A stretch of DNA of 46,124 bases from a virus (taxonomy: Duplodnaviria; Caudoviricetes). The stretch lies in IMG/VR virus record IMGVR_UViG_3300042914_001187, positions 1 through 46,124 of that record; one strand, written 5' to 3'. The position numbers and the translations under genes are program-made. Below are positions 1,326 through 6,734 of the stretch, piece after piece. The notes beneath the pieces are model-generated. The model did not search any database. It saw only the letters and a program-made list of their open reading frames with translations, and had not been told where the DNA came from. The first letter of the stretch is position 1; every line of letters begins with the position of its first letter.

Positions 1326-1354
1326 TTGACAGGTTGTTTAAACCCTGATCTAAT
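1326..1354 (+). promoter_or_regulatory. Strong sigma70 promoter of the early operon
   Basis: TTGACA (1326-1331), 17-bp spacer containing GTTTAAAC, TCTAAT (1349-1354). Confidence 0.8.
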
Positions 1355-1360
1355 CCTTTC

Positions 1361-1655
1361 CATGCCCTAGTGATATCGATCAGTTGATTGATAGTGCTAG
1401 CGAGGCAGAGACGATCGAGTCTGGTGCATGGCCCGTAAGCCCATGACCCGCTGGTGGAGTCCAGAACTGAACGGCCCAGGATAAGGTCGGTCTGTGGAGG
1501 TAAAAGTCGAGAGGCTTTCCCGGCAAGGGTTCAATACAGGCAGGGGCTACGCCCTGCACCTGTCCACCGTGACGGTAGATAAAAACCAATCCACACATTT
1601 GGAAGCTGCTTGCAGCCTGATGCCCGTCTGGGCATTGGAGTGCAAACCGCACTTA
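1361..1655 (+). ncRNA. Long structured 5' leader or candidate ncRNA
   Basis: No SD-led ORF before 1671; several hairpins, including AAAGTC-GAGA-GGCTTT and GATGCCC-GTCT-GGGCATT. Confidence 0.5.
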
Positions 1656-1979: not shown

Positions 1980-2186
1980 ATGATCAATCCCAAAATCATC
2001 CAACGCTACAACACCGACTTCGACTTCGCCAACGGGTTCAATGCCGCACTCGCCGGCATCTCCCTCGACCGCACTCAGCCAGTCAACTGGCAAGAGGGTT
2101 GGCGCGAGTGGGATCGAATCGAGTCAACCGATATCGCTGATGAGTGGGAGCGGCTGACCAGCCTACCCAACCTCAAGCACAACTGA
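1980..2186 (+). CDS. Small protein with an Rmf/CrpP-like motif
   Basis: FANGFNAALAG...WQEGW resembles the ribosome modulation factor pattern. Confidence 0.5.
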   Translation: MINPKIIQRYNTDFDFANGFNAALAGISLDRTQPVNWQEGWREWDRIESTDIADEWERLTSLPNLKHN

Positions 2187-2226
2187 TGAGACCTGACTGG
2201 TCGAAACCCCTGCGGGGGTCTTGTGC
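2177..2226 (+). ncRNA. Hammerhead ribozyme (type I topology)
   Basis: Stem I GCACAA/TTGTGC, core CTGATGA, stem II GACC/GGTC, GAAA, stem III CCCC/GGGG, GTC cleavage triplet at 2218-2220. Confidence 0.92.
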
Positions 2227-2246
2227 AATTAACCCGAAAGCGAACC

Positions 2247-2885
2247 ATGCAAACCATCGCCCAATTCCAGGCCACTAACCGTGCCGCCCGTGCTGCCGCC
2301 CCTGTTGCCCCGTCTCGCGCTGGCGAGTGGATCAAGTCCAACCCCGCTGCGTTTGAGTGGCTGGTTGATCGCTGCGACACGAACCCTTTCGCTGCATCCC
2401 TGCTGGACAACCTGCGCAAATGGGGCAGGCTGACCGACCGGCAACTGCTGGCGGTGCAGAACAATATCGCCCGGGCGCAGATCATGCGAGACAAGGCCGA
2501 CAACGCACCGGCACTGTCGGTCGAGCCCATCGAGCAAGCATTCGCCAAGGCCCAGGCTGCTGGCGTGGCGCGCCCAAAGCTGCGCCTGGGTGAGTTCACC
2601 TTCAGCCCTGCCCCTGCCACTGGCAAGAACCCCGGCGCGATCTACGTCAAGCATTCGGATGGCACCTACCTGGGCAAGGTGACCGGCTCCCGCCTATTCA
2701 CTGTCGCCGCAGTCGGCGGTGAGGTCGAGCGTGAGATCGTTGCAGTGGCGGCTGACCCCCTCAATGCAGCCATCGCCTACGGCAAAAAATACGGGAAGTG
2801 CTCAGTGTGCGCCCGTACCCTGACCGATGAGGCATCCATCGCCCGGGGCATCGGCCCCGTCTGCGCGGAAAGGTTTGGCTGGTAA
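2247..2885 (+). CDS. DUF6011-type Zn-finger protein
   Basis: C-terminal GKCSVCARTLTDEASIARGIGPVCA. Confidence 0.75.
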   Translation: MQTIAQFQATNRAARAAAPVAPSRAGEWIKSNPAAFEWLVDRCDTNPFAASLLDNLRKWGRLTDRQLLAVQNNIARAQIMRDKADNAPALSVEPIEQAFAKAQAAGVARPKLRLGEFTFSPAPATGKNPGAIYVKHSDGTYLGKVTGSRLFTVAAVGGEVEREIVAVAADPLNAAIAYGKKYGKCSVCARTLTDEASIARGIGPVCAERFGW

Positions 2886-3702: not shown

Positions 3703-5139
3703 ATGGCAAACATTTCCCAGACCATCATCCAAATCGCCCGTCTGCCCCTGCCTGTCGTGGCAGGTGCGTACAACCAGTACCACCCCAACCCTCAGGGCGG
3801 GGTTACCAAGACCGATGCAAGCCGCTGGCTGGCCGAGGCGGTCGAGGCTGGCACCCTGAGCATGAACAACATCATGGCCGCCACGCCTTCGACCTTCAAG
3901 GCCGCGCCGACCATCGATCCCGCCATCGGGGCCAAGGTTGATGCAGCCTCGCAGGTTGCATCTGATGCCCGGGCTGATGCCCTGTCTGCGCTCAATCGCA
4001 TCGATGCCATCGACGACAACATCAGCGCAGTGATCCAGACAATGGCTCGCGTCGAGCACAAGTCCAACACCCTGTCCGACAAGATCGATGGCATCAAGAT
4101 TGATGACCGTAGCATTAAGGTAGCGGTCGATTCAATTATTGGCGACCACTTTTCGCGCTGGTCTAAACGCATCGAGGACGCGGGTGCCCAACAGGTTGTG
4201 GCCGACCAGACCGCCGCGCACCGCACTGGCAGCAAAAGCTGCTTTGAGGTTTTCGGCATCGATGTTTTCGATGTTAAGGGTCAGCCACTGATGGTTGACC
4301 TTTGGAACCATCCCCAGGCACCTGCGGTAGACCCCGACTTCATCTGGACTGAGGGCATTCTCAAGCACCTGCTGCTCTCTGACCGGACGGGTGAGAATCT
4401 TTGGTTTGGCGGCGAGAAAGGCACCGGCAAGTCTGAGACGGCCCGACAGTTTGCAGCCCGTACCGGACGCGCGTTTAAACGCATCAACTTCCACAAGCAC
4501 ACAACCGTGGAAGAGTATGTCGGCGCTGTGGGCATCGAGGACGGCAAGACCGTCTTCCAGGCCAAGGACTTCCTGCTGGCCTACACCATGCCCTCCACCG
4601 TGATCCTGCTGGATGAGGTCACCAACGCTGACCCAGGCGAACTGGCAACGCTCAATGGTTTCCTTGAGCCCAACGCCTGCGTGTCCTTTGGGGGTCTGAC
4701 CCATACCCGCGCCGAGGGGGTGCTGGTCTTCGTGGCCGACAACACCTTCGGCAATGGTGACGACTCAGGCAGGCACGCTGGCACCCGCATGCAAAACTCT
4801 GCCCTGGTTGATCGGTTCTCGCGGGTGATCCAGTTTGACTACCTGCCCAAGGACTCTGAGATCGAGGCCATCACCCGCCGCGCCGGCTGCAACAAGGCAA
4901 TCGCCGAGGCGATTCACTGTGCCATTCAGGTTGCGCGGCACAAGGTCAAGAGTGCCGACATTGTGGACGCACCATCGATCCGGTCTGCCATCGCCTTTGC
5001 CCGGGCAATCCAAGTGCTTCCCCTGCGTGAGGCTTGGACGACCACTGTCGTGGCCCGACAACCCGTCGAGTCTCACGCTACCCTGATGGGCATCTTCGAT
5101 GCCTGCATGAATCAAGAATTTTTCAACGACAACATTTGA
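3703..5139 (+). CDS. MoxR/CobS-like AAA+ ATPase
   Basis: Walker A GEKGTGKS, Walker B ILLDE, NSALVDRF, SIRS sensor; long helical N-terminus. Confidence 0.88.
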   Translation: MANISQTIIQIARLPLPVVAGAYNQYHPNPQGGVTKTDASRWLAEAVEAGTLSMNNIMAATPSTFKAAPTIDPAIGAKVDAASQVASDARADALSALNRIDAIDDNISAVIQTMARVEHKSNTLSDKIDGIKIDDRSIKVAVDSIIGDHFSRWSKRIEDAGAQQVVADQTAAHRTGSKSCFEVFGIDVFDVKGQPLMVDLWNHPQAPAVDPDFIWTEGILKHLLLSDRTGENLWFGGEKGTGKSETARQFAARTGRAFKRINFHKHTTVEEYVGAVGIEDGKTVFQAKDFLLAYTMPSTVILLDEVTNADPGELATLNGFLEPNACVSFGGLTHTRAEGVLVFVADNTFGNGDDSGRHAGTRMQNSALVDRFSRVIQFDYLPKDSEIEAITRRAGCNKAIAEAIHCAIQVARHKVKSADIVDAPSIRSAIAFARAIQVLPLREAWTTTVVARQPVESHATLMGIFDACMNQEFFNDNI

Positions 5140-5147
5140 GGCGAATC

Positions 5148-6734
5148 ATGAAACGCTATCACGGATACTCGTTTAAACAGGCCGTCGAAAATTTGACACG
5201 CAAGGTCGCGGCCGAGTTTGGTCTGGCGGTCAGGACGATCAACTGGCATGCAGGCATCCAGACCGCCGGTACAAACAAGGACGGCGACATTTACTTCGCT
5301 GACGTTGCGGATGACGCGGTGCTTTATGACATTGATGTTCAACGCTATGTCGGTTTTGTGGTGCATGAACTGCTGCACCAAAAATATACCGACTTCAACG
5401 TCAACCACCACGACCAGTACGTCAACCAACTGCACAACGCGGTCGAGGATGCCTGGATCGAGCATACGGGTATCGATGCCAAGCTGACCGGCAACATCGA
5501 TGGGCTGCTGACCGCGCTGCTGGATCAGATTGTGGGCGAGGCCAATGCCACGGTGACTGATTGGGCAGACCCTGCTCAATACCCGTTTATCTTCGCGGTC
5601 TACCTGCGGCGGCATCTGAACACCCATGTCCCGGTGCCTGCTGGCCTGGAGCCCATCATCATTGGCGCGACTCAGCGAATCGATGCCTGCCGCTCCAGCA
5701 AGGACACGCTGGCCCTGGCTGAGTGGATCATGGGTCAACTCCAGGCCCTGCCAAAGAACCCCAAGAACACCCCCGACAAGGCCCCCAAAGGCCCCTCAGA
5801 GGCTCCATCTGATGACGGCAATGGTAAGGGTGCAGGCGAGGCCGATAAGGGCTCCAGGCTTGGCGACAACCCGCACAAAAGCCCAGGCTCTGCCCGGGCT
5901 CCCAAAAAATCTGATGAGGCGGTGGAGGTTGAGCCCTCCATCAAGGTGCCCGAGGGCAAGGCCGGTATCGGGTCATGGTCTGAGCATGCAACACTGACCC
6001 CGCCTGACCATCACCTGCGCAGCAACCCCTGGCTCACCGACCAACTGGCGGTGCCTGCGCGGCTGCGGTATGAGGTCAAGCGCCTGTTCGACAACTCTGG
6101 GCGCGAGGACTTCCAGCGCAACCGCAGGGCTGGCTCGATCAATGTCTCGGCCCTGCACAAGATCGGCATCACCGACAAGCTGTTCCAGCGCCGCCATGCG
6201 GTTGAGGGCATCGACTCTGCGGTTGTGATCTGCCTGGATGTTTCGGGCTCGATGTTCGATGACGGGAAAAAGAATAAAAAATACAACATGAGCAACCGCA
6301 TCGTCCAGGCTGCTATGGCAACCAGGGCGCTGCTGGATACCCTGCAAAAGGCCCAGGTCGAGACCTGCGTCCTTGCCTTTGGCTCGTTCACTTCAGTGGT
6401 CAAGCCCTGGGGTGAGCATGCGGTCAAGGCTGCGGCAAAGATCAACAGCATCGGCAACGGCGGGTCAACCAACGACTACTTCGCGGTTCGCTACGCCCAC
6501 AAGCTGCTGCTCAGTCGCCCCGAGCAGCGCAAGATTTGCTTTGTCATCACCGATGGCATCGGCAAGCCTATAGCAGTGCGCAACCAGTGCGAGGCAGGCA
6601 ACAACCTGGGCATCACCACCATCGGCATCGGCATCGAGCAGGACGTTAAGCATGTATACCCTCAGTCGGTGCGGATCACTGACGTTGGCGACCTGGGCAC
6701 CGTGTCATTCAAACAGATCAAGCTGGCAGCATGA
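5148..6734 (+). CDS. CobT-like protein: N-terminal HExxH peptidase-like domain plus C-terminal VWA domain
   Basis: VHELLH...NAVED; MIDAS DVSGS, GGST, ITDG; start at ATG 5148 after GAGG. Confidence 0.85.
   Translation: MKRYHGYSFKQAVENLTRKVAAEFGLAVRTINWHAGIQTAGTNKDGDIYFADVADDAVLYDIDVQRYVGFVVHELLHQKYTDFNVNHHDQYVNQLHNAVEDAWIEHTGIDAKLTGNIDGLLTALLDQIVGEANATVTDWADPAQYPFIFAVYLRRHLNTHVPVPAGLEPIIIGATQRIDACRSSKDTLALAEWIMGQLQALPKNPKNTPDKAPKGPSEAPSDDGNGKGAGEADKGSRLGDNPHKSPGSARAPKKSDEAVEVEPSIKVPEGKAGIGSWSEHATLTPPDHHLRSNPWLTDQLAVPARLRYEVKRLFDNSGREDFQRNRRAGSINVSALHKIGITDKLFQRRHAVEGIDSAVVICLDVSGSMFDDGKKNKKYNMSNRIVQAAMATRALLDTLQKAQVETCVLAFGSFTSVVKPWGEHAVKAAAKINSIGNGGSTNDYFAVRYAHKLLLSRPEQRKICFVITDGIGKPIAVRNQCEAGNNLGITTIGIGIEQDVKHVYPQSVRITDVGDLGTVSFKQIKLAA

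Follow-up and report, generated by a model that had tools for sequence, protein, structure and literature searches.

A type I hammerhead ribozyme at a phage early-gene junction belongs to a widespread cassette in which the upstream stop codon precedes the predicted cut

Between two early genes of a tailed-phage contig lies an element, 2177-2226, that is a type I hammerhead ribozyme by sequence and structure, albeit one that scores below Rfam thresholds and stands outside the hammerhead subclass with a loop II pseudoknot. We propose that it is one copy of a widespread phage cassette, that its predicted cut, after C2220, likely splits the polycistronic early transcript, and that the stop codon of the upstream gene is kept before the cut. 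The stretch analysed, here called the window, is 46,124 nucleotides long and makes up the whole of a 46-kb phage contig (G000), with a terminase small subunit gene at 152-952. The features that matter for the argument are these:

940-1120: several TTATCCACA/TGTGGATAA-like boxes, lying in the stretch that separates the terminase small subunit gene from the early promoter
1326-1354, plus strand: probable early promoter, TTGACA-17 nt-TCTAAT, read by eye
1355-1605, plus strand: non-coding leader of ~240 nt after the probable early promoter, from the codon score
1608-1657, plus strand: two adjacent hairpins with one A between them, from a motif scan and covariation; uncatalogued
1980-2186, plus strand: upstream orphan open reading frame of 68 codons, from its coding score, with its stop on the core TGA
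2176, plus strand: conserved A outside stem I on its 5' side, an A in 61 of 62 subclass members
2177-2226, plus strand: type I hammerhead ribozyme, from fold, Rfam, covariation and folding in context
2221-2246, plus strand: 26-nt leader after the predicted cut, nearly unstructured by folding
2247-2885, plus strand: DUF6011 (PF19474)/phrog_4046 gene, 212 aa (PF19474, E 1.5e-15)
3703-6734, plus strand: pair of genes in the early operon for an AAA ATPase (CobS/MoxR-like) and a VWA-domain protein

On inspection of the sequence, stem I (2177-2182/2221-2226) consists of six Watson-Crick pairs, the core CTGATGA occupies 2183-2189, stem II (2190-2193/2199-2202) has 4 bp and a 5-nt loop, and GAA (2203-2205) is followed by a 5-bp stem III (2206-2210/2215-2219) and the cleavage triplet GTC, with the predicted cut 3' of its last base, C2220. 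In hammerhead position numbering, the invariant core CUGANGA, GAA, the A15.1-U16.1 pair and H17 are all present, and the topology is that of type I, with the core surrounded by three helices, of which stem I is open-ended and stems II and III are closed by loops. This fold is the minimum-energy structure (-21 kcal/mol, z -2.5, with 3 of 200 shuffles as good), and it is still so in 110- and 200-nt contexts, where pair probabilities run from 0.61 to 0.98 and no competing alternative fold is predicted. The best Rfam match, Hammerhead_1 (RF00163), covers exactly 2177-2226 with 26.4 bits (E 0.001), short of the gathering score of 34, and at gathering level Rfam has no match anywhere in the 46-kb window. 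A structural descriptor for type I hammerheads, with types II and III covered by Rfam alone, found one in the window and none in 60 second-order Markov shuffles. A loose core pattern gave 18 overlapping matches at four sites, of which only the one at 2183 has the stems; the RAGATH-1 hammerhead (RF03152) was rejected at 20 bits against a threshold of 56.3, with only model positions 26-77 matched. BLAST of the hammerhead against GenBank phages gave no match. An earlier note on this DNA had read the element as a hammerhead with all core nucleotides and three perfect stems, and inspection, minimum-energy fold, Rfam match and the covariation given below bear this out.

The genes on either side fit closely around the ribozyme. 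The open reading frame at 1980-2186 ends on the first core TGA (2184-2186), with a second in-frame TGA at 2187-2189, and it scores as coding in its own frame only (+29 bits, against -17 and -34 in the others), the core TGA being the stop of the upstream gene, as had been suggested; a search for homologues over a single query length range returned only the sequence itself. Downstream, the predicted cut after C2220 leaves 26 nt before the ATG at 2247, in agreement with the earlier arithmetic. This leader carries a GAAAG motif resembling a ribosome-binding site, and the same motif precedes the ATG at 3703. Folding predicts no sequestration of the ribosome-binding site by stem I, the GAAAG site being open with or without the cut. 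The ATG within the core was considered as the start of the DUF6011 gene and rejected as out of frame. From the probable promoter at 1326-1354, which is missing from the output of an automated scan that accepts only A as the second base of the second hexamer, the early transcript probably starts near 1361, placing the hammerhead ~0.8 kb in. A similar site precedes the leader in a related contig (L002).

Pattern scans of viral contigs place the hammerhead in a large family. The first scan returned 126 stretches of an estimated ~220, and these, together with two DUF6011 loci and the window, yield at least 113 distinct type I hammerheads in 129 sources. A second pattern, which excluded the window's stem I base, returned 123 stretches of an estimated ~1600, part of them chance matches; with 48 loci carrying the 1608-1657 motif, they add at least 87 further distinct type I hammerheads. 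Each ribozyme follows the end of one gene and precedes the start of the next, and a contig often carries several of them (e.g. L055, L007 and L028). Their neighbours are highly varied: 104 upstream proteins fall into 77 clusters, and 105 downstream proteins into 76. The leader after the cut measures 24-30 nt in 59 of 105 members, which is about the room that an initiating ribosome needs. To judge from these sequence comparisons, the hammerhead is part of a widespread phage cassette made up of a stop codon, a hammerhead, a leader of ~25 nt and an ATG.

Among 54 rows from the subclass to which the window's copy belongs, double changes occur at 12 of 16 pairs, distributed over all three stems, and 99.4% of cells are paired; the count is biased upward, since pairing served to select the rows and the search pattern dictated the inner columns. 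The core is invariant in 62 of 62 members except at position 7, and the GTC triplet occurs in 111 of 111 hammerheads, invariances that the search patterns fix in part. A loop II pseudoknot of at least four pairs was found in 8 of 62 members of this subclass versus 17 of 20 in a subclass with a long stem II; in the window's copy the best Watson-Crick pairing of loop II is 2 bp. In the long-stem subclass, which has a 19-nt stem II arm (L012, L025, L042, L044 and others), loop II pairs with the 3' tail, and base changes in the two partners match between copies. The window's subclass lacks a paired extension of stem I and gives no covariation or mutual-information signal for pairing of loop II with either the 3' tail or the 5' flank. 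Besides A2176, its members share A2227 (A in 61 of 62) and, in loop II, U2194 (U in 61 of 62) and A2196 (A in 59 of 62), and this conservation makes these four bases a likely candidate for a non-Watson-Crick tertiary contact. Natural hammerheads depend on tertiary contacts between stems I and II, according to PMC11300833. For a copy that has no Watson-Crick loop II pseudoknot, the speed of cleavage in vivo is uncertain.

The clearest regularity in the family concerns where the upstream gene ends. The upstream reading frame was taken to be, among those starting with ATG and spanning at least 40 codons, the one with the largest number of codons before the core, with 250 nt of upstream sequence required and no gene finder used; an event was defined as a protein cluster plus a stop offset, so that phylogeny was handled by clustering alone, and the counts leave out duplicates, hammerheads with less than 250 nt upstream, and 3 and 12 hammerheads with no upstream frame of at least 40 codons. 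In the first sample, 107 hammerheads, 104 of them with such a frame, reduce to 85 events, in which the stop falls in the core 23 times, within 20 nt before the core 39 times, later inside the ribozyme 11 times, farther upstream 12 times and past the cut never. For the 34 events that reach the core, random frames would put 7.0 stops past the cut (P 2e-4), and the 23 core stops compare with 11.3 expected from random frames and with 14.8 +/- 2.9 given a stop before the cut. A second sample, with other stem I sequences, gave 75 events (15 core, 40 just upstream, 6 inside, 14 far upstream, 0 past); 6.3 of the 21 reaching the core were expected past the cut, and 15 core stops were found where 11.2 were expected. 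Over both samples, 160 independent junctions comprise 38 stops in the core, 79 just upstream of it, 17 later inside the ribozyme and 26 farther upstream; 134 of the 160 thus lie inside the ribozyme or no more than 20 nt ahead of its core, and none lies past the cut, where 13 of the 55 reaching the core were expected. Five clusters of homologous upstream genes change their stop offset near the ribozyme, and unrelated upstream genes, those of the window and of L001, end on the same core codon. A stop in the core is not conserved, and the rule is a stop before the cut. This rule likely serves to avoid non-stop mRNA, because a cut inside a reading frame would produce it, and the absence of stops past the cut speaks, on comparative grounds, for cleavage of translated mRNA by these ribozymes in vivo.

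The junction upstream of DUF6011 orthologues gives a closer view of the same variability. We compared 21 loci, namely 14 of 16 metagenome loci (L393 and L394, with no upstream DNA, were dropped) and 7 picked from a set of 80. An intact hammerhead precedes the gene in 7 of them, with the stop at +1 (L384, L390, L392), +11 (L387, L388), -3 (L133) or -13 (L397), so that, with the window included, the core holds the stop in 4 of 8 intact hammerheads; the ribozyme of L397 is nearly identical to the window's, yet its upstream gene stops at -13. L389 (~60-120) has, ahead of DUF6011, a hammerhead with C in place of the core A9 and with an upstream stop that comes earlier; decay of the copy or faulty assembly may account for it. 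The 1608-1657 motif fills the slot in five loci (L383, L385, L395, L136, L141), four have no cassette (L382, L391, L132, L135), three have other sequence (L386, L130, L131), and L396 offers too little DNA. L382 and L391 share their upstream gene with L397, and short direct repeats flank the cassette when L397 is set beside these two, which suggests that it was lost through slippage or recombination. Other structured or conserved spacers, which the model of the 1608-1657 motif does not match, occupy the slot in L131 (~2415-2480), L130 and L386. Among the 80 DUF6011 loci, a hammerhead is present only in L129, which is the same contig as L384, and in L133/L134. At this junction both the ribozyme and the place of the stop vary, and the benefit of the cassette may be small, since it is absent or replaced in many relatives and L389 carries a core change. 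The natural variants, with stops at -13, -3, +1 and +11 or no cassette between the same genes, form a ready test set for the effect of ribosome traffic on cleavage.

These counts bear directly on the special meaning that the earlier note had given to the stop in the core, which does not survive them: a core stop is found in only 38 of 160 events, and offsets shift among homologous genes and before DUF6011 orthologues. They likewise weaken the idea of a translation-gated switch, in which selection would place the stop in the core and ribosome traffic on the 1980-2186 frame would set whether and when the RNA is cut. The concentration of stops close to or inside the ribozyme would suit such a switch, as would the stop codon shared by the unrelated upstream genes of the window and L001, and the main evidence left for it is the excess of core stops over conditional expectation in both samples. 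That excess is also what one would expect if the core TGA is immutable while stops in loop II are free to mutate, and folding gives neither a competing fold nor a sequestered downstream ribosome-binding site. We therefore consider a dedicated translation-coupled switch unlikely and unsupported, given that the stop position is not conserved and two alternative folds were not found; the stop/core overlap in the window is probably tight packing and not a control switch, and genes running into the cassette often end in the core because packing is compact and the core TGA cannot mutate.

The cassette might instead be a nearly neutral or selfish repeat, spreading mainly because recombination between its copies reshuffles early genes, or because RNAs of gene length, excised between two copies, are ligated or mobilised, with cleavage of minor importance for expression. 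The many neighbour clusters, the several copies per contig, and the presence (L397) or absence (L382, L391) of the cassette between the same pair of genes are all consistent with this. The invariant catalytic core, the compensatory changes in the stems and the finding that none of 160 junctions has its stop beyond the cut all point to selection on cleaving translated RNA, and PMC3088659 reports that spliced or circular products were not found; we regard this alternative as quite improbable. Least credible of all, and very improbable indeed, is that the minimal hammerhead is slow or inactive and serves only as a pair of hairpins for 3' end protection or as a pause site. It would account for the missing pseudoknot and stem I extension in a ribozyme class whose natural forms need stem I-II tertiary contacts (PMC11300833), as well as for the broken core of L389; against it stand the core and GTC invariance, partly pattern-fixed as it is, and the unpaired A/A together with the U and A of loop II, all of which are conserved and fit a tertiary contact.

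We thus favour the reading that the hammerhead cuts the early transcript, notwithstanding an Rfam score below the cut-off and the single type I copy in this genome. Hammerhead cleavage leaves a cyclic phosphate on one product and a 5'-OH on the other, and RNase E decay can depend on the 5' end. In the cell, the ribozyme would cut with the aid of loop II contacting the top of stem I in a non-Watson-Crick manner; the upstream product would carry stems II and III and a cyclic phosphate at its end, and the DUF6011 message would begin with a 5'-OH and the 26-nt open leader, insulating its translation and slowing 5'-end-dependent decay. Stabilisation of that message by the 5'-OH is plausible in the light of RNase E biology. 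The invariant core TGA would be the most durable stop inside the cassette, such that genes running into it tend to end there. For stop offsets from about -13 to +14, stem I or the core would lie under the terminating ribosome for a short time, and ribosomes finishing the upstream gene may thus briefly block folding, delaying cleavage without switching it. Of the earlier proposal that a terminating ribosome couples processing to translation, a generic damping of cleavage is therefore plausible and would need no designed switch, and the dedicated coupling falls away with the varying stop offsets and the lack of an alternative fold.

The hammerhead is not the only element to occupy such a junction. 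The paired hairpins at 1608-1657 belong to a motif with matches in 48 viral stretches, some of them chance; 9 of its 16 pairs show double changes (26 rows). Most commonly ~7-11 nt separate the upstream stop from the motif and ~14-19 nt separate the motif from the next start, so that it occupies the position between genes that the hammerhead takes elsewhere; it replaces the hammerhead before DUF6011 in relatives and alternates with hammerheads along one operon, that of L001, with three copies and then a hammerhead. Copies were seen in L001, L136, L141, L210-L255, L383, L385 and L395. Its 5' flank can pair with loop 2 beyond chance expectation, which would allow a pseudoknot: this pairing averages 3.84 versus 2.98 +/- 0.13 (0 of 2000 swaps; 43 copies, uncorrected for kinship, after removal of 3 copies that lack the second hairpin and 4 duplicates), and in the window's copy it amounts to 2 bp only. 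The motif has no Rfam match and, by BLAST, none among GenBank phages. Candidate roles for it are those of a site cut by a host nuclease, an element for protein binding or antitermination, and a new ribozyme; the antitermination reading draws on what we take to be a resemblance to put antiterminators. One could go further and suppose that hammerhead and motif are interchangeable processing cassettes of early operons, that the motif is a new protein-free self-cleaving class, and that both sit on an upstream stop with ribosome traffic timing the cuts, a speculative combination that we think rather unlikely to hold in full. As a lead, this companion of the hammerhead promises more than the hammerhead copy itself.

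Farther upstream, the leader at 1355-1605 is possibly a large structured RNA: it is 67-82% alike in relatives (L001, L002, L214, L228, L230, L232, L237, L239), 17 of 36 predicted pairs show double changes among 9 sequences, and it has no Rfam match. The boxes at 940-1120 are presumably DnaA-box-like.

The UGAUGA hexamer of the RYMV satellite RNA presumably corresponds to its hammerhead core. In PMC4488728, that hexamer is described as an initiation-termination sequence, and the likeness to the window lies in a UGAUGA serving as a stop signal in an RNA that cleaves itself by a hammerhead; the satellite is a circular plant RNA, whereas the core ATG of the window is out of frame with DUF6011. Our literature search, within main texts open to it, found no paper on stop codons in phage hammerhead cores, and the term "stop codon" is absent from the main texts of PMC3088659 and PMC6765202. 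Hammerheads and stop codons are brought together in an origin-of-code argument (bioRxiv 10.64898/2026.03.05.709948), and PMC6765202 treats the question of what self-cleaving ribozymes do for bacteria and phages as unsettled. Among Rfam families, Hammerhead_1 (RF00163) has the same type I topology, with all 45 model positions matched at 2177-2226, and differs from the window's copy, which has a longer stem III and no internal loop in stem I; RAGATH-1 (RF03152) aligns in the core, stem III and inner stem I, leaves model positions 1-25 unmatched, and contrasts with the normal stem II of the window.

The closest precedent is that of Perreault et al. 2011 (PMC3088659), in which clustered hammerheads flank variable single genes in prophages and phages and cut polycistronic RNAs of 2 kb both in vitro and in E. 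coli, with processing to single-gene mRNAs as the implied role; for a halovirus hammerhead, a mapped transcript 5' end lies no more than 3 nt from the cut. Polycistron-cutting phage hammerheads are thus already published, and the window's copy by itself adds little, in contrast to the family-wide count of stop positions. Dataset S1 of that paper may hold members of the present family. This precedent joins covariation and gene-junction context in supporting the role in early-polycistron processing that the earlier note had proposed, with cleavage at this site a prediction from sequence. The window resembles the clusters of that paper in having a canonical core, an intergenic position in a phage polycistron, variable neighbours and a start codon close by. 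Unlike the type II ribozymes and pseudoknots emphasised there, the window's copy is type I, with a 6-bp stem I, a 4-bp stem II and no pseudoknot, and where those clusters have several ribozymes per genome, the window holds one canonical type I copy and its relatives several per contig.
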